The notes below the pieces were generated by a model. That model was given only the letters and a program-made list of their open reading frames with translations. It searched no databases and had not been told where the DNA came from. From positions 71,530-135,529 of the forward strand of contig DATDQB010000001.1 of the NCBI GenBank assembly GCA_035292445.1: a stretch of 64,000 nucleotides of DNA, given 5' to 3'. Numbering within the stretch: the first letter of the stretch is position 1; each line of letters begins with the position of its first letter. Below are positions 318 through 20,214 of the stretch, one piece after another. The position numbers and the translations under genes are program-made. This DNA comes from Candidatus Omnitrophota bacterium. Lineage in GTDB: Bacteria; Omnitrophota; Gorgyraeia; Zapsychrales; Zapsychraceae.

Positions 318-1729
318 GAATTCTTATTAACCCTGGCCGGGACAAAGACCAGCTCCCTGAAACCACGCGCACAGGCCTTCAAAAGATGAAGCCCGTGCTT
401 AAACGCCTTCATTTTGGATTCCCCTGCACGACGGTTCTTATAATGAACGGGCACCTCCAGAATTTTATTGCCCATCTTGGCGGCACCGAATATAAGATCG
501 AAATCCCCCCATTTATCCAACCCCATTTGTATATATTGATAATCCTTTTTATATAAAGCCTTCGTGCCGCAGAGGGTGTCGGTCAATGCCTGATTGGTAA
601 GAAAAGACATCAGTAAGGAAAACAATTTGTTCCCCAACTGGTTCAAGAAACGCATGGATTGGCCTTCTTTGGGATAGACCATCCTGGTGCCGTTAACGAA
701 CTGGCAAAGCCCTTTGTTAAGAGGATCAAAGAACCGCGGCAACTCCTCCGGCTCAACGGTCATGTCAGCATCCAAGATCATGATCACCTCTTGAGTGGCC
801 GCATCGAAACCGGACTTCACCGCATAGCCTTTGCCATGATTGGGCGAATAATCAATCAGCCTTAAGTTAGGGTATTCATGTTGCATATCTTTGACCAATG
901 CAGCTGTTTTGTCCCGGCTACCGTCATTAACCACAATGATCTCCGTATACTTTCCCATTTTTGGAATTCTTTTAATAGCTCCGACGATGTTGCCCTCTTC
1001 ATTGTAGCAGGGAATCACCACCGAGCACCCCAAGCCCAAATCCATCGTATTTTTAGCCGTTGGCTGAATGAGCATATAGGAAACGAAAGAAAGCTTATTA
1101 AACCCCCACAACCGAACCCCCAGGCTGTTGGCCAAATAAGATAAAAGCGGGATAAAAATGGGACTAGAAAGCAAATACCCGGTCTGGTTAATCTTAAAAT
1201 CAACCAGCTCCAGGATCTTTCCGATGTTACGCATGTCCAAATAATTTAAAGGCACATCCGGCGCCTTCCACCCGCATTTCTCGGCCAACTTATATAACGG
1301 GTCCCACCACGGGTTGACGTATGTTACAATGACCCTCGTTTGAGGATGACAGAAGCGGTAAATTTTCTCAAAAACCGTCATCACATCATACACATGATGA
1401 ATCAAGTCCGTCATGATGATGAAATCAAACTTCTCATCCGATTCAAAATCTTCAACGGAGGAATGAATAAAGTGAAGGCCGGGAAATTTTTTCTGGGCGA
1501 TCTTGACCATTTCTCGGCTGATATCGATGCCCACGCCGTAAGAGGCTTGCGTAACGGCAAGGATCTCCCCCGTGCCGCAGCCGATTTCCAGCACCCGGCA
1601 CTTGGGCTGGACGCTCTTTTGAATAAACGTCTTAATATTATCGTAATAATAACGGTTTTTACGTTTATACATATCGTATTGAGGGGCAAGCTCATCAAAA
1701 TGATCCTTAACCAAATCCGTTGCCTGCAT
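314..1729 (-). CDS. Bifunctional class I SAM-dependent methyltransferase / family-2 glycosyltransferase (dolichyl/polyprenyl-phosphate sugar synthase-like)
   Basis: The N-terminus carries the SAM-binding motif VLEIGCGTGE. A hydrophobic linker follows. The C-terminus has the GT2 signatures VVIPCYNEEGNI, NDGSRD and ILDADM..PEELPRF. Confidence 0.8.
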   Translation of the reverse strand: MQATDLVKDHFDELAPQYDMYKRKNRYYYDNIKTFIQKSVQPKCRVLEIGCGTGEILAVTQASYGVGIDISREMVKIAQKKFPGLHFIHSSVEDFESDEKFDFIIMTDLIHHVYDVMTVFEKIYRFCHPQTRVIVTYVNPWWDPLYKLAEKCGWKAPDVPLNYLDMRNIGKILELVDFKINQTGYLLSSPIFIPLLSYLANSLGVRLWGFNKLSFVSYMLIQPTAKNTMDLGLGCSVVIPCYNEEGNIVGAIKRIPKMGKYTEIIVVNDGSRDKTAALVKDMQHEYPNLRLIDYSPNHGKGYAVKSGFDAATQEVIMILDADMTVEPEELPRFFDPLNKGLCQFVNGTRMVYPKEGQSMRFLNQLGNKLFSLLMSFLTNQALTDTLCGTKALYKKDYQYIQMGLDKWGDFDLIFGAAKMGNKILEVPVHYKNRRAGESKMKAFKHGLHLLKACARGFRELVFVPARVNKNS

Positions 1730-2523
1730 TAGAAACTCCTTCCTTGTTTACTCAATTGAATCGTATAAAACATCCCCAACCAACGATTAAACGGAATGAG
1801 AATAACCTCGAGTATTTTTATAAAAGAATAAGAAAATGAGGGTAACATCTGTTTCATGGACAGACCGCCACTGATTAAATAACAAAACGGCGTGTGGGCG
1901 CGTATGCTGTCAATGGAGAAACTGCCGAATGTGTCCAAGAAGCGTTGCCGGTCGCGGCAAAAGACGATCCAGGGAAGCGCGCCATTCGCATCCGACATCG
2001 GGCCGCTTCCTTCTATCTGCCAATCCGCTTTCCGGTCAAAATTTTCATGATGAAAATTGGTCCAAATAAATCTTGCCCATAACGTGTTGGCCGGCTCGAT
2101 CATCATGACCCGACCGCCCGGCTTGAGACAACGCTCCAACTCCTTAAGGAACATGCTAGGGTCTTTAATATGGTGAAAAACATCGATCATCAAAAAAGCG
2201 CTGACGCTTTGATCGCCAAAAGGGATGGATTGGCCGGAAAAACAAACGTCGACCTTAGGGATCTGTAAAATATCGCTGGTGACGACGGACGGCAAAACCT
2301 CTTTGATGAACCCGCCGCCGCTTCCCAATTCTACGATAACTTCGCCGCCACTTAAAGGCCCCAGCATTATAGCAAAGCGCCGATAAAAATCCTTATAAAC
2401 CTGGTACAAAAACTTCTTTTGACGGATGATCTGGGCATGGATCAACGTCGCGCCCGGATCATCAAGACTGGAGATACCCTTGGCCTGGGGAAGCCTTAAC
2501 CACTCGATTAATTTATCTTTCAT
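1729..2523 (-). CDS. Class I SAM-dependent methyltransferase
   Basis: Motifs VELGSGGGF (motif I) and LKPGGRVMMIEP (motif post-II) are present. The gene sits between two MT-GT2 paralogs. Confidence 0.75.
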   Translation of the reverse strand: MKDKLIEWLRLPQAKGISSLDDPGATLIHAQIIRQKKFLYQVYKDFYRRFAIMLGPLSGGEVIVELGSGGGFIKEVLPSVVTSDILQIPKVDVCFSGQSIPFGDQSVSAFLMIDVFHHIKDPSMFLKELERCLKPGGRVMMIEPANTLWARFIWTNFHHENFDRKADWQIEGSGPMSDANGALPWIVFCRDRQRFLDTFGSFSIDSIRAHTPFCYLISGGLSMKQMLPSFSYSFIKILEVILIPFNRWLGMFYTIQLSKQGRSF

Positions 2524-2529
2524 AAGATT

Positions 2530-3948
2530 TTAGATGAAACGGATCTTGCGCATGGCGAAAAAAGTCATTTTGATAAGCAGCCACCCATGCTGAAAACGGC
2601 TGATTTGACTCGTGCCGTAAGTCCTGGCTTTATACTGCACCGGTATCTCGATGATCCTCAAATGGAGTTTGGCGGCGCCGAAAAGAAGGTCGAAATCACC
2701 AAAGGGATCGAAATCACCAAAGTAGCTACGGTTAGCGGCGATCTTTTCATAATCTTGCCTCCAAAGGACTTTGGTCCCGCATAGAGTATCTTTTAAATAT
2801 TGGCCGAGCAAATACGTGAGCGCGTTACTGAACAATCGGTTGGCTATCATGTTAAGGAACCGCATCGCTTGGCTTTCCATGCGGTAAACCAACCGGCTGC
2901 CGTTGATGAATTCCCCTTTCCCTTTGACCAACGCATCAAAAAATTTCGGCATATCCTCGGGAGCGGTCGTCAGATCGGCATCCAGGATCATTAACACATC
3001 CCCCTTTGCCAGCGCAAAACCCTCGCGGACCGCATCCCCTTTTCCTTTGCCCTTTTGGACCAACACTTTAATATTTTTGTCCCGATACTTTTGCTGGACC
3101 CTGAGGCACTCTTCATACGTGCCGTCTTTGGAATGGCCCTCCACAAAAATAAACTCTGTCTTGGCACCCATGGCCGGCGTCCTGGCAACAGCCTGTTCGA
3201 TGTTCCCTTTCTCGTTGCGGCAGGGGATCACGACCGAGCAACTGACTTTGGCCGGGTCTTTTCTGGTACCGATGGGCTGAAAGATCAAAATATGATTGAA
3301 CGCCAAACTCCTGAAAAACGGCAAATGTACGATGTATTTGTTGAAAAGTGTTGAAAGAAACGGTATGTAAATCGGGAAAAGAAAATGATGGGTGATGGTA
3401 ACAACACGAAAATCGCTTAACTGAAGAAGGTTTTTTAAATCTTTGGTGGAGAGCCAGTGCTGTTCCGGCCATTTCATGCGTAGCCCCAATATTTCAGCCA
3501 ACTTCAAAACAGGGCGCCACAAATGGCTATGGTAGATCAGGATCACTTTTGTTTCAGGCCGGCAGACGGTGTGGATCTGATCGAAGGCCGCTTGAAGGTC
3601 ATCGGCGTAACCGATAATGTTATTGATCAAAACGTAATCGAATGTTTCATTGATAGAAAGCTGGTCGATTTGACCGACGTGGAAATCCAGGAAAGGGAAT
3701 TTTTTCTTGGCCAGCTCAACGGTGTGTTGGCTGAAATCAATACCCACGCCGCGTTTTGGGTCCAAGGCGGCGAGCTGCTCTCCGGTATGACAGCCGATCT
3801 CTAAAACGTTCGCTTGGGAAGGGATAAGAAACCGGACGTAGTTCCTTAAATGACGGTGGTAATACTCATTCTTGCGTATGAACTCTTCTCTCGATAAATC
3901 AACGGCCTCAAAATCGATACGCACCTTATTATGCGTTTGGGTATCCAT
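2530..3948 (-). CDS. Bifunctional SAM methyltransferase / GT2 glycosyltransferase, paralog of 314..1729
   Basis: Motifs VLEIGCHTGE, VVIPCRNEKGNI and ILDADLTTAPEDMPKFF are present. The architecture and length (472 aa) match the first paralog. Confidence 0.8.
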   Translation of the reverse strand: MDTQTHNKVRIDFEAVDLSREEFIRKNEYYHRHLRNYVRFLIPSQANVLEIGCHTGEQLAALDPKRGVGIDFSQHTVELAKKKFPFLDFHVGQIDQLSINETFDYVLINNIIGYADDLQAAFDQIHTVCRPETKVILIYHSHLWRPVLKLAEILGLRMKWPEQHWLSTKDLKNLLQLSDFRVVTITHHFLFPIYIPFLSTLFNKYIVHLPFFRSLAFNHILIFQPIGTRKDPAKVSCSVVIPCRNEKGNIEQAVARTPAMGAKTEFIFVEGHSKDGTYEECLRVQQKYRDKNIKVLVQKGKGKGDAVREGFALAKGDVLMILDADLTTAPEDMPKFFDALVKGKGEFINGSRLVYRMESQAMRFLNMIANRLFSNALTYLLGQYLKDTLCGTKVLWRQDYEKIAANRSYFGDFDPFGDFDLLFGAAKLHLRIIEIPVQYKARTYGTSQISRFQHGWLLIKMTFFAMRKIRFI

Positions 3949-12821: not shown

Positions 12822-13790
12822 TCATGGTTTTAAAGGCAGTAGATTATCCCTGGAGAAATTCCCGCCATTTTTGGGCTTGCTTTCATTAAGCGTCTGCCCC
12901 TGCCGCAGTTTCTCATACAATTTTAAGTAGTTCTGTGTCATATGTTTAACCGTAAACTGGCGGCACACATACTCATGGCAGCGTTTGGGATCGAAGCGAT
13001 GAAGATTTCTGACAGCCTCCATCATTTCGTTGACCGATAAGCTTAAAAAGCCGACTTCTTTGGGCACCAACTCCGGCAAAGAGCCGTAAGGGCTTCCTAT
13101 CACGGGGCAGCCGAAATAGAGGGCCTCAATAATCGCGATCCCAAAGGGCTCATGCCAACGTACCGGGAAAAGAAGCGCCTTTGATTGCTGGAGGGCTTTA
13201 TTTTTCTGTTCTCCAGCGAGAAAATCCATATAGCGGGCCCACGGCCGCCGGCGGTACCATTTATCTTTACCGCCCACCACCGCCAGAATACTTTTGGTCT
13301 GGCGGGCTATCCTCAAGCAGTCTTTTAGGTTCTTCTCCGGGCGTTTGGCGTATCCCAAAAAAAGCAAGTAAGGGCGCTGCGCCTCAAAATCGACGGGGCC
13401 GTACTCCTGCGGATCGATGCCATTATAAACAAACGTACTCGAGGCGTTGCGCCGCGCCTGGTCCTTGGAAACAAAGACCGTGTTGATATCGAACTCGCTG
13501 TCGGGATGAAAATTGTATTGGTGCATCATCAGATACGGTTTTTTGATTTTCTCCTTCGACTGAAAGCATAAATGGACAACATCGGTATCATCCGGGATTT
13601 GATCATTCACAAATTTTTGGGGGTCATAAATTTGGACTTTAGCAAAAGGACAATGCGACCCCTCCCCCGCCAAATAGCACACCTCATGGCCCAGGCGCAC
13701 CAATTCTTTTCCCAGCCACCAAATGATCCGCTCCACCCCGCCATAGTCTTTAACAGGAATCGCCGTGTTATTAACAATCAGTATCTTCAT
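12822..13790 (-). CDS. Glycosyltransferase family 4 (GT-B, RfaG-like)
   Basis: C-terminal GT4 motif EPFGIAIIEALYFGCPVIGSPYGSLPELV. Confidence 0.75.
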   Translation of the reverse strand: MKILIVNNTAIPVKDYGGVERIIWWLGKELVRLGHEVCYLAGEGSHCPFAKVQIYDPQKFVNDQIPDDTDVVHLCFQSKEKIKKPYLMMHQYNFHPDSEFDINTVFVSKDQARRNASSTFVYNGIDPQEYGPVDFEAQRPYLLFLGYAKRPEKNLKDCLRIARQTKSILAVVGGKDKWYRRRPWARYMDFLAGEQKNKALQQSKALLFPVRWHEPFGIAIIEALYFGCPVIGSPYGSLPELVPKEVGFLSLSVNEMMEAVRNLHRFDPKRCHEYVCRQFTVKHMTQNYLKLYEKLRQGQTLNESKPKNGGNFSRDNLLPLKP

Positions 13791-15008: not shown

Positions 15009-15461
15009 CTAAGTGTGCTCGGTGGCGGCCAAAATCCGGCGGGTCATTTCTTCTTCATAAAGCCGGCGGATCGCATCCAGTTCTTTTTTACCAAGAAAAA
15101 CGACGATAGCCTTTTCAAGTGCGCCAAAACGGTTCTTCAGGTATTGATACTGCGGGTCTAAGCGGGTGCGCTTCCCATCAAGGAATTTCTTTTTAAGAAC
15201 ATTTCTCCTCTTCTCTTCCATATATTCCTCAAACTGACCCACTAACATGCGATACGGCTGGGCATTAGCGCCACTTTTATAATCCGCCGTTTTCTTCAAG
15301 CTATCTAAAACAAACGCATCGACTTCCAATTGGGTAAAATAACGGTCGATGTGGTCTAAATCTTCCTTGGTCATTTTATAGCACCAGATAAGGTAGCGTC
15401 GGATCAAATCCTTTTCTCTTTGGGGCTTTACTCTTGATTTCGCCATAGAAGACATTACCAA
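15009..15461 (-). CDS. Hypothetical protein (150 aa)
   Basis: The ORF has no recognisable motif and is operonic with the Flp pilin gene. Confidence 0.4.
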   Translation of the reverse strand: MVMSSMAKSRVKPQREKDLIRRYLIWCYKMTKEDLDHIDRYFTQLEVDAFVLDSLKKTADYKSGANAQPYRMLVGQFEEYMEEKRRNVLKKKFLDGKRTRLDPQYQYLKNRFGALEKAIVVFLGKKELDAIRRLYEEEMTRRILAATEHT

Positions 15462-15692: not shown

Positions 15693-16115
15693 TTATGACA
15701 GAAGGAACACCTCATCCCCTTCTTTGGCTTTTTTATCGACCTTTAAACCGACCAACTGCCCCTTCCTGGCTGCCGGCACATCAACGCTTTCGATTTGAAT
15801 GGAACGGATTTTCTGTTTAAAATTTGTCGTTTTTCCTTTGATATGAACCTGGTTCCCTACCCTCAACGGGCCTTTAAGTTTAACAACCACCACCTGAATA
15901 CGGGAAAAGAAATGAGTGACCTTGCCCACACACACAGGCTTAGGTTGCACCTCCGAAACCTTCTTTGGTCTCTTGGTTATCCTTTTACTTTTGGAAGCAG
16001 CTTTTTTTGGGCGAGCAGTATTTTTACGCTTTGACTTTCTTTTTCGCCTTAAACCTTTTTGCTTTTTCTTAAGATATTTGATAGTGGCTGAAAGAAGATG
16101 ATCCAATATCGGCAT
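15693..16115 (-). CDS. Hypothetical protein: Lys/Arg-rich N-terminus plus a C-terminal beta-barrel domain resembling an elongation-factor domain-2-like fold
   Basis: The N-terminus is KKKQKGLRRKRKSKRKNTARPKKAASKSKRITKRPKK. The C-terminal ~80 aa show alternating hydrophobic beta-strand pattern. Confidence 0.45.
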   Translation of the reverse strand: MPILDHLLSATIKYLKKKQKGLRRKRKSKRKNTARPKKAASKSKRITKRPKKVSEVQPKPVCVGKVTHFFSRIQVVVVKLKGPLRVGNQVHIKGKTTNFKQKIRSIQIESVDVPAARKGQLVGLKVDKKAKEGDEVFLLS

Positions 16116-16138: not shown

Positions 16139-16465
16139 TTATAAAGTGATTTTATCGGCTATATCGGCAATGATCGGCAACCGGACGTACTCGCTCTGCA
16201 ATACCTTGATGATGCCAACCAAAGAAAAAATACCCGCAATAAACATGCCCAACCTTAAAAACCATTGCCCCAGGATGATATGGACGATGAAAACGCCCAC
16301 TTCCCCCACAAAAAGGACAAGGCCTTGTTTGCCGTGGCTCAAGACAAACGGGTTTTCCTTCTTTAAAACGAGGGGAAGGATACAAAAGATGGAAAGATAG
16401 GAAAGGATGGCGAAAACCTTTCCTTCGATAATCTGTGAATCCTCACTCGCTCGCCTTCTGTTCAT
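16139..16465 (-). CDS. DUF4870-family small membrane protein
   Basis: AILSYLSIFCILPLVL...HGKQGLVLFV is the typical DUF4870 pattern. It overlaps the ParA-fusion gene by 23 nt. Confidence 0.5.
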   Translation of the reverse strand: MNRRRASEDSQIIEGKVFAILSYLSIFCILPLVLKKENPFVLSHGKQGLVLFVGEVGVFIVHIILGQWFLRLGMFIAGIFSLVGIIKVLQSEYVRLPIIADIADKITL

Positions 16466-17615
16466 TGCCCATGACCTCGATCAGCGAGTTGATATCACCG
16501 AAAGAATTGCGTTCTTTTTGGGGGTTATTGGGGTCTTCTTTCCAGACCCCGTCGATGATAAACTGGTATTTATAGACGCCGGGTTTAAGAGGCATGTCGA
16601 TTTCCCAGCGGCCGGATTCTTTGGCTTCCTTTAACCGGCAAGATTCATCCAGCGCCCAGTCGTTAAAACTTCCGGTGACATAAGCGGACTTTGCCCCGGG
16701 GGCTTCGATAAAGAAGCGTATGGGGATAAGGGACTCCGCCTCTTTCTTGATCAGCTTCTCCATTTTGGGGGAGAACTGGTGCGCCGCTTCTTTTTCTTTC
16801 GCAGTCTTTACTTCTTTAAATGCCTGCTCTTCCTCAAGCGTTGCTTGACCCTCCTCTTTCTTCTCGAGAAAAAGGATCTCTTTGGCCAACGTGAAATAAT
16901 CTTTTGAACCCCGGCAATACTTATCATAGGAAGAAACGGGTTTCCCCATGACAGCTGCTTCTTTCAATTTGACATTAATATGCACGATTGTATCAAATAA
17001 CATATTCTTAAACCGTTCTTTAATTTTGGAAAGCATGGAAAAAGAATGGCGCAACCTGGAATCAAACATGGTCACCAAAACACGGCATTTGACTTCATGA
17101 TTAAGCCTATCGCGCACGAGATTGACGATGTCCAGCAGATGCTCCACCCCCTGCATGGAAAAACGGCTCATTTCGACCGGAACAAGGATCTCCTGGCTGA
17201 CGCGGATCGCGTTGACCGTGAGGATCCCCAAACTCGGCGGGCAATCGATCAAGATATAGTCATATTGGTCTTTGATATTCTGGAAAACAGAAACCAGTTT
17301 GAGCTCCCGGCCGATCTCATCGGAGAGCTCCTGCTCCAGCGTACCTACCAGAATGTTCGAAGGGACCACATCAAATTTATTTTCAATGCGTTTGATGATA
17401 TTCTCGATCTTGAGCTTGCGGGGAGTGAGATTGGAAATAACATTGTAAATGCTGTCTTGGCTTTCGATATCCAACCCCAAAGAAGCGTGAGCCTGAGGGT
17501 CCAAATCCACCAAAAGCACCTTTTTATCGTTTTCGCTTAAGGCCGCCGCCAGGTTGATCGCGGTCGTTGTTTTGCCGCAACCCCCCTTCTGATTGGCTAT
17601 TGATATGACTTTCAT
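16443..17615 (-). CDS. ParA/MinD-family ATPase fused to a C-terminal AMPK-beta/CBM48-type glycogen-binding domain
   Basis: The deviant Walker A ANQKGGCGKTTTAINLA and a ParA fold occupy ~250 aa. A charged linker leads to a C-terminal CBM48 domain. That domain aligns to the AMPK beta GBD consensus through WExDPNNP: FFIEAPGAKSAYVTGSFNDWALDE...GRWEIDMPLKPGVYKYQFIIDGVWKEDPNNP. Confidence 0.85.
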   Translation of the reverse strand: MKVISIANQKGGCGKTTTAINLAAALSENDKKVLLVDLDPQAHASLGLDIESQDSIYNVISNLTPRKLKIENIIKRIENKFDVVPSNILVGTLEQELSDEIGRELKLVSVFQNIKDQYDYILIDCPPSLGILTVNAIRVSQEILVPVEMSRFSMQGVEHLLDIVNLVRDRLNHEVKCRVLVTMFDSRLRHSFSMLSKIKERFKNMLFDTIVHINVKLKEAAVMGKPVSSYDKYCRGSKDYFTLAKEILFLEKKEEGQATLEEEQAFKEVKTAKEKEAAHQFSPKMEKLIKKEAESLIPIRFFIEAPGAKSAYVTGSFNDWALDESCRLKEAKESGRWEIDMPLKPGVYKYQFIIDGVWKEDPNNPQKERNSFGDINSLIEVMGNEQKASE

Positions 17616-17642
17616 GGTCCGTTCTCTTTAGAATAAATTTGA

Positions 17643-18230
17643 TTAACCGGATTGGGCGCTGGAAAACCGCACATGGTCGATCAAAACAACGCCTTTTTCC
17701 TTATTCACGTTCCACGATTCAAGGATAAAGGAGATGTCTTTGAGATTCGACCAATCCGAAATTTGTTTAAATTCGGCCAGTGGAATGGCAAATTCCTTCC
17801 AATTGTAACTGATGCCTTGCACATAATACGAGGCCATTTCATTCTTATCATTTTGAATAACGACTTTGACGATTCCCGGGTTGCCTTCCTCTTTGGCACG
17901 GATGGAAAACTGCAGCCAGCCGTATTGGGCGGCATCTATCTCGGGAACGGTTAAGGCGATCGTTTTGACCGGGGCGATGTCTTTCTTGAAATCATACGGC
18001 AGGAAAATGCGCCCGCTGTGCAAGGAATAGATGATTTTGCTCTCGAAAAACGAGGTTCGTTGCTTCAAAAAGGCCGTCAACCCGTAAAAAGCGCTGGCAA
18101 AGATGATGACGGTAATGAGTAAATTGATCAAAAGCCAGGCATTGAACTCGGACTTCGTTTTTTGATCGGCCTTTTTGCGCTTGCCCAGATACACTTGGGC
18201 CAGGTGGTCGTAAATTTCGTCTCTTGTCAT
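17643..18230 (-). CDS. Hypothetical membrane-anchored protein with an extracytoplasmic beta-rich domain
   Basis: It has a short cytoplasmic N-terminus and one TM helix (WLLINLLITVIIFASAFYGLTAF). The C-terminal ~140 aa domain is possibly carbohydrate-binding. Confidence 0.45.
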   Translation of the reverse strand: MTRDEIYDHLAQVYLGKRKKADQKTKSEFNAWLLINLLITVIIFASAFYGLTAFLKQRTSFFESKIIYSLHSGRIFLPYDFKKDIAPVKTIALTVPEIDAAQYGWLQFSIRAKEEGNPGIVKVVIQNDKNEMASYYVQGISYNWKEFAIPLAEFKQISDWSNLKDISFILESWNVNKEKGVVLIDHVRFSSAQSG

Positions 18231-18444
18231 ATATATAAAAGTTATTCAATCGTTAAGAAATAATCTGCCCACCGAAAGGTGATAAGATAAATTTTATATT
18301 AACAAATAATACTAGAATTGGAAATAGAATTTATACTTTTTATATATATATTTCAAAATATTGTCGACGAGAATGGTCAAAAATCAAAAAGGCGGGTAAA
18401 CAGTTGTCTCAATTCATTCTTAATTAGCTCATTTAAGCGCCCAT

Positions 18445-18481
18445 AAAAAAGCCCCTGCTACTTTTTTCAAGTAGCAGGGGC
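18445..18481 (-). terminator. Rho-independent terminator downstream of the outer-membrane protein gene
   Basis: A perfect 13-bp stem (GCCCCTGCTACTT / AAGTAGCAGGGGC) with a 5-nt loop is followed by a U6 run on the minus strand. Confidence 0.65.
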
Positions 18482-18506: not shown

Positions 18507-19856
18507 TTAAAAGTTTACGTTAACGTGGACGATCGCTTGCTTGGCTGTCTGACCACTAGTTGATGTGAATACGCCCTTGGGAATGAACCATCCAAGATTA
18601 CCTCCGATTTGGACATCTTCGGTGTAATCATAGATTAATTCAAAATCGATTTCTTTACCAAGATCGGAGTTCTCTCTCTTGATCTCAACATCTACATCGC
18701 TGCTACTACCTGGCTGATTCAAGCTGATTTGAGAGATACCTGCACCTAAGTCTCTTTCCAAGAAAAGACCCGTCACGGAAAGTTTGGCCAATAAATCTTC
18801 CATCGGGTTAAACCCGAGGGTTATTGTATGGATTTCCGCGTTTGTCAGATCAAAGAGGGCGTTATAAATCTTGCCACCCGCTTGATTTTCAAACATGGGG
18901 TCCCATCCTGTAAAGTCACCATCATCATCAGAATCTTCAGCATTTCCTGTGACTTTGGTGTAGACGTATTGCGCGGTCGGGTTGTATTCATCAAAAGCCG
19001 GAATCTGGTAATTGGCGATGAATTGGACCGCCCAAGCATTACGTCTTGCGTGATTAGTACCAAAATTATGCGTACCTTTTTGGTAAGCATTTTCCACTTG
19101 AAGGTTTAACCCTTCAAACGGATTGGTGCTAACACGTCCACCAACGGTATATACCTCATCAGCTTTTATGCCTCCTGCAGGGTTTTGATCAACCTTTTTC
19201 CAGAAGTAGGCTTCGATGATGGAATTATAATCATCACCGAGCTGATAATTGGCGTTGATACCAGCAAGCATAGTATCATCATCGTGTGTATATATGCTGC
19301 CGCTGCTTGTTTCGTCAATCTGGGCATACACGATGTCGATGGTGAGCGGATTGTAATCCAAGATCGCTCGGATCGCATCCAGTGTTGTTTGCTTGGTTAG
19401 GTCATCAGCCACATCCGCGAGCCCTGAAGTGTCTGGCGCATGGTTATTGGTTCCGGATGAATCAACAATAAGGCTGTTTCCATAACGGAAACTTTGACGA
19501 CCGATGATCAACGTTAACGGAGAATAGAGCATTTCCCTTAACGTTACGTAGGCCAATAGGATATCGACGCTCGAGTTGCTGCTATCCTCATGCACCCATG
19601 GTCTTTCATTGATTAAGGCGATCGTTGCCCCGACTTGATCCGTCAGGTCGGCATCGACTTGCAAAATAGCCTGCGTGAGAAAAGTGGATTGCTTTTCATC
19701 AACGCCGGTATTATGGCCTAAATCAAAGTTTTTTCTGAACAAATACGTGCTGTCAACGCTGCCGCTGACGCGCACGTTTTGTACAGCAGCGAATGCTGAG
19801 CCAGCAACCATCGCTGTAGCCAAGAGCATCGCTGTTATCATTAATAATTTTCTCAT
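18507..19856 (-). CDS. Outer-membrane beta-barrel protein (porin-like)
   Basis: The signal peptide is MRKLLMITAMLLATAMVAGSAFA. The sequence has alternating beta-strand character and a C-terminal Phe (..VNVNF). GGAGGAG lies upstream. Confidence 0.6.
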   Translation of the reverse strand: MRKLLMITAMLLATAMVAGSAFAAVQNVRVSGSVDSTYLFRKNFDLGHNTGVDEKQSTFLTQAILQVDADLTDQVGATIALINERPWVHEDSSNSSVDILLAYVTLREMLYSPLTLIIGRQSFRYGNSLIVDSSGTNNHAPDTSGLADVADDLTKQTTLDAIRAILDYNPLTIDIVYAQIDETSSGSIYTHDDDTMLAGINANYQLGDDYNSIIEAYFWKKVDQNPAGGIKADEVYTVGGRVSTNPFEGLNLQVENAYQKGTHNFGTNHARRNAWAVQFIANYQIPAFDEYNPTAQYVYTKVTGNAEDSDDDGDFTGWDPMFENQAGGKIYNALFDLTNAEIHTITLGFNPMEDLLAKLSVTGLFLERDLGAGISQISLNQPGSSSDVDVEIKRENSDLGKEIDFELIYDYTEDVQIGGNLGWFIPKGVFTSTSGQTAKQAIVHVNVNF

Positions 19857-20139: not shown

Positions 20140-20214
20140 TGCGCCTGGGTGGATTCGAACCACCCACGCCGGCCTTAGGAGAGCCGCGCTCTATCCATAC
20201 TGAGCTACAGGCGC
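20140..20214 (-). tRNA. tRNA-Arg (anticodon CCT)
   Basis: The reverse complement folds as a 75-nt cloverleaf. It has a GCGCCTG acceptor stem, a GGTTCGAATCC T-arm and the anticodon loop CT-CCT-AA. CCA is not encoded. Confidence 0.85.

Follow-up and report, generated by a model that had tools for sequence, protein, structure and literature searches.

The subject of this analysis is a 64,000-nucleotide stretch of Candidatus Omnitrophota DNA (hereafter the window; contig DATDQB010000001.1 of assembly GCA_035292445.1), in which a minus-strand gene encodes a Soj-type ParA ATPase fused to a C-terminal carbohydrate-binding module (CBM) of family CBM48, resembling that of the beta subunit of AMP-activated protein kinase (AMPK). 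As the best reading of this ParA-CBM48 protein, we infer that it may tether or position glycogen particles on the nucleoid, and we place the probability of this reading at about 0.4. An earlier note on this DNA, made from the bare sequence, had proposed a glucan-granule positioning module. The domain architecture and the sugar-contacting residues fit that proposal, but no gene context in any phylum links the fusion to glycogen metabolism. The three open reading frames (ORFs) named in the note are all present, all on the minus strand. The fusion gene and its parts, modelled where stated with AlphaFold2 (AF2) and its per-residue confidence score pLDDT, are as follows.

16443..17615, minus strand: ParA-CBM48 fusion gene, 390 aa, confirmed by ORF check
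16851..17615, minus strand: Soj-type ParA ATPase domain, residues 1-255, with Walker A KGGCGKT at 17568-17588, A' motif DLD and Walker B motif IDCPP
16776..16850, minus strand: linker, charged, of variable length, predicted disordered (pLDDT <50 at residues 259-279)
16731..16775, minus strand: pre-CBM helix F-x-P-[LM]-S-x-K-M, with M285 invariant and S282 almost so; residues 283-294 helical in AF2
16467..16727, minus strand: CBM48 / AMPK-beta-type alpha-glucan-binding module, residues 297-383, with W320, W358 and N376 as sugar-contact equivalents

Domain composition and conservation of the fusion protein

Both halves of the 390-aa protein are recognised by Pfam above the gathering threshold (GA), as the earlier note had anticipated. 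The ATPase matches AAA_31 (PF13614) with 188.8 bits against a GA of 27 and CbiA (PF01656) with 71.2 bits against 25.4, and the tail matches AMPK1_CBM (PF16561) at residues 307-383 with 54.0 bits against 26.8 (E 1.9e-14). CBM_48 (PF02922) scores just under its threshold (21.2 vs 22.4), and this family is on record for relatives of the Planctomycetota type. The span AKSAYVTGSFNDW...DGVWKEDPNNP, which the note had aligned with the AMPK-beta domain, is present at residues 309-365. When compared with the PDB, the ATPase half is closest to the ParA/Soj structures 8ray_B (177 bits), H. pylori Soj 6iub and T. thermophilus Soj 1wcv, and the tail matches the CBMs of AMPK beta1 and beta2. The AF2 model of the whole protein (confidence 68.7) has a ParA-like secondary structure in its ATPase half. 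A chimeric contig or a fusion confined to one assembly can be set aside, since the identical 390-aa protein is encoded by 6 contigs of different assemblies and both domains are present in hundreds of homologues. Judged from these sequences, the fusion is real and under selection, and no chimera. In the databases such proteins are labelled 'AAA family ATPase' or 'chromosome partitioning protein'.

The deviant Walker A motif KGGCGKT reported by the note lies at residues 10-16 and is found in 23 of the 25 fusions aligned there; as exceptions, L007 has KGGCAKT, L012 then has Ser for Thr, and L022 is truncated at this point. Nearly all fusions carry Cys where canonical Soj has Val, as do two relatives that have no CBM (L025 from Nitrospirae and L059 from Pirellulales), although outside Omnitrophota the universality of this Cys is partly a selection effect of the pattern NQKGGCGK used in the genome scan, which covered one genome per species. 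The A' motif VDLDPQ and the Walker B motif ILIDCPP are conserved in all fusions aligned. It can be seen that the ATPase looks catalytically competent and Soj-like. In characterised Soj proteins, DNA is contacted at K199, K227, K230 and K247 of HpSoj and at R189, R215 and R218 of BsSoj (PMC6393308). The equivalents of BsSoj R189 (R187) and of BsSoj R218 / HpSoj K230 (K216) are invariant in the fusions, and K232, R235 and K238 are located near the position of HpSoj K247. DNA binding is thus plausible but not assured, because the near-universal basic residue of the IP[KR][SN] loop is replaced.

The ATPase half is about 40-45% identical to plain Soj proteins of other phyla, and its scores fall under the NCBIfam cutoffs of the specialised families. 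It reaches 111.9 bits against a cutoff of 180 for ParA_partition (NF041546), 59.6 against 212.9 for the MinD equivalog (TIGR01968) and 74.5 against 157.85 for the BcsQ equivalog (TIGR03371). The C-terminus is the beta-sandwich of the CBM, with no amphipathic membrane-targeting helix of the MinD kind. The Pfam family CBP_BcsQ is matched with 48 bits, bacterial tyrosine kinases (BY-kinases) are matched weakly and under the NCBIfam cutoffs, and the McdA structures 6non/6noo give a weak direct match of about 51 bits. In a neighbour-joining tree of ATPase domains, drawn without bootstrap support from a sample biased by the same search pattern, one clade unites 54 of the 56 plain Soj proteins, and all 26 fusions lie outside it; for 24 of the 26, the nearest neighbour is another fusion. 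We read this as a distinct ParA subfamily and not as a set of repeated independent fusions. Because the fusions form a clade apart from canonical Soj and have no ParB adjacent, the subfamily is an orphan one.

Conservation in the CBM48 module centres on the residues that would contact sugar. Across 120 homologues, the segments GSFNDW, YKYQF, DGxW and NSFGDxNS show a conservation of 95% or more, and a HMMER alignment to 1z0n places W320, W358, F372 and N376 on AMPK Trp100, Trp133, Leu146 and Asn150. Within the Omnitrophota family W320, W358 and N376 are invariant; across phyla both Trp remain invariant, and the Asn position is mostly Asn and sometimes Asp. In the complex of AMPK with cyclodextrin the two Trp pack flat against glucose units, with hydrogen bonds contributed by Asn150 and Lys126 (PMC9788615); neither AMPK nor plant PTST binds once both Trp are mutated (PMC9788615, PMC4339375). 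Of the contact residues whose presence the note had proposed to check, the Trp pair is kept; the Lys126 equivalent is Gln in this protein and Arg in 119 of 120 members of the Planctomycetota-type clade.

A tail-family profile built from 27 fusions of several phyla finds the AMPK beta1 CBM 1z0n as its best PDB match (E 4e-17), which upholds the domain assignment of the note; LSF1, SEX4, pullulanases and GlgB come next, and alpha-glucan binders dominate the remaining matches. The tail also matches a type IX secretion plug protein weakly. Designed pentatricopeptide-repeat (PPR) proteins, which headed a single-sequence search with the CBM, were rejected as summed-repeat artefacts; they contain no significant stretch and are gone when the family profile is used. 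An exhaustive search with the tail retrieved 8260 representative proteins (E<=1e-3), headed by tandem arrays of 3-18 AMPK1_CBM modules, typically four in about 480 aa; one of these arrays joins 7 CBM repeats to a GH13 alpha-amylase domain. This tandem family (P0241-P0390, e.g. P0254, P0259, P0250, P0242) includes the closest non-ParA relatives of the CBM subtype. Since the closest non-ParA carriers are tandem CBM arrays and a GH13 amylase, alpha-glucan is supported as the ligand class, and the CBM looks functional for alpha-glucan binding.

The protein has neither a signal peptide nor a transmembrane (TM) segment, and so the ligand of the CBM must be cytoplasmic. Glycogen would be the obvious candidate. 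Most of the Omnitrophota metagenome-assembled genomes (MAGs) studied encode GlgA or GlgABC, Zapsychrus exili included (PMC8542988), and Zapsychrus exili carries the fusion (P0112). Among glg-less genomes are those of the Ace Lake genera Kappaea, Aadella and Orphnella, which have trehalose only. The linker that joins the two domains measures 23-129 aa in Omnitrophota and 64-161 aa in the clade of the Planctomycetota type, and its net charge is negative in 80% of members in both clades.

Operon, phylogenetic distribution and neighbouring genes

The genes and elements around the fusion are listed below, with p195, p108, p140 and p150 used as names for the flanking genes.

17643..18230, minus strand: p195, 195 aa, confirmed by ORF check; operon gene 1
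18171..18230, minus strand: cytoplasmic N-terminal peptide of p195, MTRDEIYDHLAQVYLGKRKK, nearly invariant, modelled as helix
18066..18140, minus strand: TM helix of p195, residues 31-55, from a hydropathy scan; N-terminus cytoplasmic
17655..18041, minus strand: extracytoplasmic beta-jelly-roll of p195, CBM-like fold (AF2 pLDDT 83.8)
16139..16465, minus strand: p108, 108 aa; its first 23 nt lie within the end of the ParA gene (16443-16465)
15693..16115, minus strand: p140, the next gene, 23 nt past p108; possible operon member
15009-15461, minus strand: p150, conserved hypothetical protein
18451..18481, minus strand: intrinsic terminator of the upstream porin gene, a 13-bp GC-rich stem followed by a T-run
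18231..18450, minus strand: operon leader/promoter region, AT-rich, 220 nt, with a promoter-like site at 18356-18328

A gap of 27 nt separates p195 from the fusion gene, the 23-nt overlap of the fusion gene with p108 described in the earlier note is real, and a gap of 23 nt lies between p108 and p140. On these distances the predicted operon is p195 / ParA-CBM / p108. The transcription unit is predicted to begin at p195, with the porin gene excluded, because a strong terminator and the 220-nt AT-rich leader precede p195; for the same reason the porin was rejected as a member of the module. The promoter-like site is a consensus match only, and when the window and the operon leader were scanned with Rfam, no leader element was found and the sole match was a tRNA. 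The gene order p195, ParA-CBM, p108, p140, (p150) is kept in 9-11 Omnitrophota-type loci. In particular, p195 lies directly upstream of the fusion in all 11 such loci that have sequence there, p108 directly downstream in 9, and p140 two genes downstream in 9. Additionally, 24 p195 matches pair with ParA-CBM matches on contigs of equal size.

The upstream gene is, as the note had stated, that of a membrane-anchored protein, which crosses the inner membrane with one TM segment and has a cytoplasmic N-terminus; 7 basic residues flank the TM helix on its N-terminal side and 3 on its C-terminal side. The p195 family is restricted to Omnitrophota, has about 500 members and contains no Pfam domain. 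Its most conserved part is the N-terminal 19-mer MTRDEIYDHLAQVYLGKRK. In 38 orthologues, which are 57-90% identical overall, I6, Y7, D8, H9, L10, A11, V13, Y14, G16 and K17 are invariant. A lysine-rich stretch follows between this peptide and the TM helix, and AF2 predicts one continuous helix over residues 3-63. Operon position alone suggests that the peptide may bind the ATPase, and it is the best candidate for an ATPase-regulating partner. The suggestion that the outer domain of p195 binds carbohydrate finds agreement at the level of fold only: Foldseek returns CBM11 (6r3m, E 8e-9), then CBM28, CBM8, CBM4 and CBM16, at about 15% identity, but no sequence family in Pfam or NCBIfam matches this domain.

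The p108 protein is a small polytopic membrane protein, in agreement with the note, but its assignment to DUF4870 is weaker than had been thought, since PF09685 MamF_MmsF (= DUF4870) scores 18 bits against a GA of 25 and is weak in the orthologues too. The p140 protein, conserved in Omnitrophota, consists of a poly-Lys/Arg N-terminal tail of variable length and a conserved beta-barrel (about 85 aa), and Pfam gives it a weak match to EF-Tu domain 2; a role in binding the nucleoid or polyanions is conceivable, as is one as an alternative ParA partner. The p150 protein, marked by the motif LIRRYLIWCYKTTKE... and lacking a Pfam match, is encoded downstream of the fusion gene in several loci of Omnitrophota. 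Comparison of p140 and p150 with the PDB gave nothing informative.

The fusion itself is distributed much more widely than these neighbours. The best 120 database clusters, at 62-100% identity, are all two-domain proteins, and those with names belong to Candidatus Omnitrophota; in all, the fusion is present in more than 120 Omnitrophota clusters. A profile built from distant members reveals a second large clade, whose best 120 matches are all fusions and whose named members are Sedimentisphaerales or Planctomycetota. Full-length fusions are found in MAGs labelled Planctomycetia, Sedimentisphaerales, Tepidisphaerales, Kuenenia, Myxococcota and Gemmatimonadales, and also in two gammaproteobacterial MAGs, Thiogranum and one other. 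Gammaproteobacteria and Myxococcota as a rule have canonical parAB, and therefore the fusion in these groups must be an extra paralogue. No statement on canonical parAB in Omnitrophota was found in the literature or its supplements.

The neighbours p195, p108 and p140 do not recur outside Omnitrophota. Accordingly, the view of the note that the flanking membrane proteins are parts of the module holds for Omnitrophota-type genomes only, but not for Planctomycetota, where the gene stands alone. No parB is adjacent to the fusion in any of about 30 loci, and a Pfam scan of 100 neighbour ORFs from 18 non-Omnitrophota loci detected no recurring family, no glg gene and no ParB. In other phyla, a number of the genes directly downstream start with a motif like I-[SGA]-H-[YLH]-F-L-[SP] or KLGRGLDEV, resembling the ParA-stimulating peptides at the N-termini of ParB. 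They are located at L013:7100-7598, L015:7179-8033, L019:1851-2507, L023:7111-8016, L024:7102-7845, L027:7479-9086 and L028:7229-8215; their products have no Pfam domain, contain a basic stretch beside the ISHYFLS or KLGRGLDEV-like motif and, this peptide aside, are not detectably related to one another. A regular expression for the ParB-like N-terminal peptide, formulated post hoc, matches 14 of 44 fusion-adjacent ORFs and none of 230 others. A shared ParB-like peptide joining p195 to these neighbours was considered and is unsupported, three cross-validated profile tests being negative. The idea that the partner proteins of other phyla are degenerate ParA folds was likewise rejected, with an hhalign probability of about 0. 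In both gammaproteobacterial loci (L016:5146-5601 and L021:5383-5913) a MerR-family helix-turn-helix regulator lies directly upstream of ParA-CBM on the same strand, and in a Kuenenia stuttgartiensis MAG (L022:1544-2200) the fusion is followed downstream by the gene of a secreted protein whose C-terminal anchor is PEP-CTERM-like.

The window as a whole is ordinary chromosomal territory. It contains genes for GroES/EL, GuaA/B, DnaE, HU, tRNA synthetases and RecO, and further genes for PPDK, a sigma-70-family factor, APRT, S15, PNPase and FtsK. As the note had reported, no glg genes are found in the 64 kb; neither is a ParB gene or a ParB box motif, and there are no bcs genes nearby. A glycosyltransferase gene of family GT1 is located at 12822-13790, about 2.6 kb downstream. 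Upstream of the operon, positions 18507-19856 (minus strand) encode a 449-aa outer-membrane beta-barrel (porin) that has no Pfam match here. In related genomes the orthologous proteins are annotated as Alginate_exp (PF13372), and a weak match to a Desulfovibrio-type porin comes from NCBIfam. This porin gene is syntenic across Omnitrophota and is transcribed apart from the ParA operon; a tRNA gene (20140-20214, minus strand) lies between it and the APRT gene. Elsewhere in the window, two paralogues of about 471 aa each (314-1729 and 2530-3948, both minus strand) join an S-adenosylmethionine (SAM)-dependent methyltransferase to a GT2 glycosyltransferase. Between the two lies the gene of a methyltransferase that stands alone (1729-2523, minus strand), and the group is probably a glycan-modification cluster.

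Proposed glycogen tethering and the competing explanations

The favoured mechanism starts from an orphan Soj-like ParA in which the cargo-binding element would be built in, as a C-terminal CBM48 on a long, flexible and mostly acidic linker. With ATP bound, the ATPase, whose catalytic motifs are intact, would form the usual sandwich dimer. The dimer would bind the nucleoid non-specifically through a surface that keeps R187 and K216 and has lost one near-universal basic residue, and its two CBM48 modules could hold cytoplasmic particles of glycogen or another alpha-glucan on the conserved Trp-Trp-Asn platform. Many weak, nucleotide-gated links of this kind would anchor glycogen particles to the nucleoid and distribute them across its surface; both daughters would then inherit reserves, and granules would be kept off the poles or septum. 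ATP hydrolysis would undo the link. In Omnitrophota, the co-transcribed p195 may regulate the ATPase through its amphipathic/basic cytoplasmic peptide, and the small membrane protein p108 would be co-transcribed as well. The fuller proposal, an adaptor-less ParA that holds cargo by its fused domain, tethers and partitions glycogen on the nucleoid under ATP control and, in Omnitrophota, is linked to the envelope via the p195 peptide, is tentative and on balance doubtful.

Several observations weigh against glycogen tethering. None of about 30 loci has a glycogen gene linked to the fusion, and in two megabase-scale Planctomycetota contigs the fusion gene is alone, with no adjacent partner gene. 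Three cross-validated profiles, trained on p195, on the other phyla and on intermediates, failed to connect the p195 peptide to the peptides of the neighbours elsewhere. In the ATPase, the equivalent of HpSoj K227 / BsSoj R215 is Ile213 in Omnitrophota, where 'VHIN' stands for the IP[KR][SN] loop; in the CBM, the AMPK Lys126 equivalent is Gln in 116 of 120 Omnitrophota members; and the AF2 confidence for the fusion (68.7) is moderate. There is also a difficulty of mechanism. The classical ParA ratchet requires a cargo-bound activator and a transient contact between ParA and cargo, and a covalently fused cargo binder misfits it. Moreover, the sole candidate activator, p195, sits in the membrane and off the granule.

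Some of these points would suit a protein that senses glycogen and leaves granules unmoved. CBM48 would report on reserves, and glycogen would sequester or release the ATPase and so gate some other process under ParA control, for example how p195/p108 act or where they are placed, the choice of division site or the organisation of the nucleoid. Among solved structures, the domain is closest to the regulatory CBMs of AMPK beta, the operon partners in Omnitrophota are membrane proteins and not granule proteins, and a fused cargo binder suits sequestration better than a ratchet. More speculatively, the acidic linker exits the ATPase near the DNA-binding face and could act as a regulated autoinhibitor. 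However, no regulated output can be named, and with no conserved neighbour in Planctomycetota a common output must be encoded elsewhere. Sensing and tethering are indistinguishable at the sequence level, and we consider sensing unlikely. Loss of sugar binding, with the C-terminal beta-sandwich now serving as a protein-protein interaction domain for some other cargo, would agree with the Gln at the Lys126 position in Omnitrophota and for the missing glg linkage; folds of the E-set/CBM48 type are reused for protein binding, and the weak match to the type IX secretion plug is an example. The residues conserved across phyla, however, are exactly the stacking Trp pair and the Asn of the sugar site (the Asn sometimes being Asp), and the domain has its nearest relatives in tandem arrays that bind starch/glycogen and in an amylase, which makes this explanation improbable.

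The remaining explanations concern the ATPase. A Soj/ParA that partitions the chromosome, carries an accessory C-terminal domain and has its ParB-parS encoded elsewhere in the genome would be expected to resemble the chromosomal proteins, and the fusion does: chromosomal ParA/Soj provide its best PDB and profile matches (8ray_B, HpSoj, TtSoj), the identity to plain Soj of other phyla is considerable, the core is extremely conserved and in phylum-wide synteny with housekeeping genes, and databases use the name 'chromosome partitioning protein'. But the sub-cutoff ParA_partition score, the position of the fusions outside the clade of plain Soj proteins, the lost basic residue of the IP[KR][SN] loop, the absence of an adjacent parB in about 30 loci and of a ParB motif in the window, and the status of extra paralogue in Gammaproteobacteria and Myxococcota leave it quite unlikely. 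An organiser of envelope polysaccharide, similar to BcsQ or a BY-kinase, has about as little probability as loss of sugar binding. It would place or regulate a glucan complex of p195 and p108, with CBM48 binding a cytoplasmic primer or product. The CBP_BcsQ and weak BY-kinase matches, the periplasmic CBM-type fold of p195 and the nearby GT1-family glycosyltransferase are consistent with such a role. Nevertheless, the BcsQ and BY-kinase scores are far under the Soj scores and the NCBIfam cutoffs, the operon contains no synthase or exporter, the porin is set apart by its strong terminator, and outside Omnitrophota no such neighbours lie beside the fusion.

Known systems and biological meaning

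Compared with chromosomal ParA/Soj (6iub/6iuc, 1wcv, 8ray), the fusion shares the ATPase fold and its length, the signature Lys, the A' and B motifs and two of the positions that bind non-specific DNA. It differs from the Soj of ParABS systems in having no adjacent ParB/parS, in forming a separate clade, in its KGGCGKT in place of Soj KGGVGKT, in its altered IP[KR][SN] loop and in the roughly 135 aa of linker and CBM48 added at the C-terminus. The systems of McdA/McdB, PpfA, ParC and PomZ are alike in being orphan ParA proteins, and the fusion possibly likewise distributes cytoplasmic metabolic cargo on the nucleoid matrix. In McdA/McdB-type systems, however, a separate cargo adaptor contacts and stimulates ParA transiently, whereas the presumed cargo module of the fusion is covalent, and unlike in McdAB no McdB-like or cargo genes are linked to it.

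The best relative of the tail is the AMPK beta CBM (1z0n, 2f15, 4y0g), of which the equivalents of Trp100, Trp133 and Asn150 are kept and Leu146 is changed to Phe. In contrast to AMPK beta, the CBM of the fusion is bacterial and cytoplasmic and is carried by a P-loop ATPase with no kinase scaffold, and Lys126 is replaced by Gln or Arg according to clade. Plant PTST is a non-catalytic protein whose C-terminal CBM48 anchors another activity on alpha-glucan granules, and the same Trp pair is essential there (PMC4339375). The PTST CBM48 joins a coiled coil carrying starch synthase, whereas that of the fusion joins ParA, and the two proteins are homologous in the CBM only. BcsQ is a P-loop relative in polysaccharide biology, but the fusion matches it far more weakly than Soj and has no bcs genes. 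PhaM and PhaF bind both polyhydroxybutyrate (PHB) granules and DNA, so that daughters inherit granules; they are not ATPases, and their histone-like tails bind the DNA. The fusion shares with them the idea of a tether between granule and DNA, but its attachment would be ATP-gated. The earlier note had listed PHB granules among the cargoes of ParA; this precedent is doubtful, as the tethers are proteins of the PhaM/PhaF type and not ParA.

The note had known of no ParA-CBM48 system, and in searches of the full-text literature no description of such a protein or of ParA-dependent glycogen positioning was found. Judged by these searches, a fused cargo-type domain on a positioning ATPase of the ParA/MinD family is unprecedented. 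ATPases of this family are a general bacterial means of placing large cytoplasmic objects, and to our knowledge every new ParA cargo so far came with a separate adaptor protein. As far as we know, the control of number, position and inheritance of glycogen granules in bacteria is essentially unknown. A conserved, multi-phylum ParA subfamily with a built-in alpha-glucan module would provide a molecular handle on the organisation of these granules, and the label 'chromosome partitioning protein' on many such sequences would be corrected. If the tethering of glycogen is true, a cargo binder fused to the motor would imply tethering and no diffusion-ratchet, and hence a second way to use the ParA switch. 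A storage polysaccharide would then join the cargoes of ParA, and the fusion would be the first ParA to hold its cargo by a fused domain.

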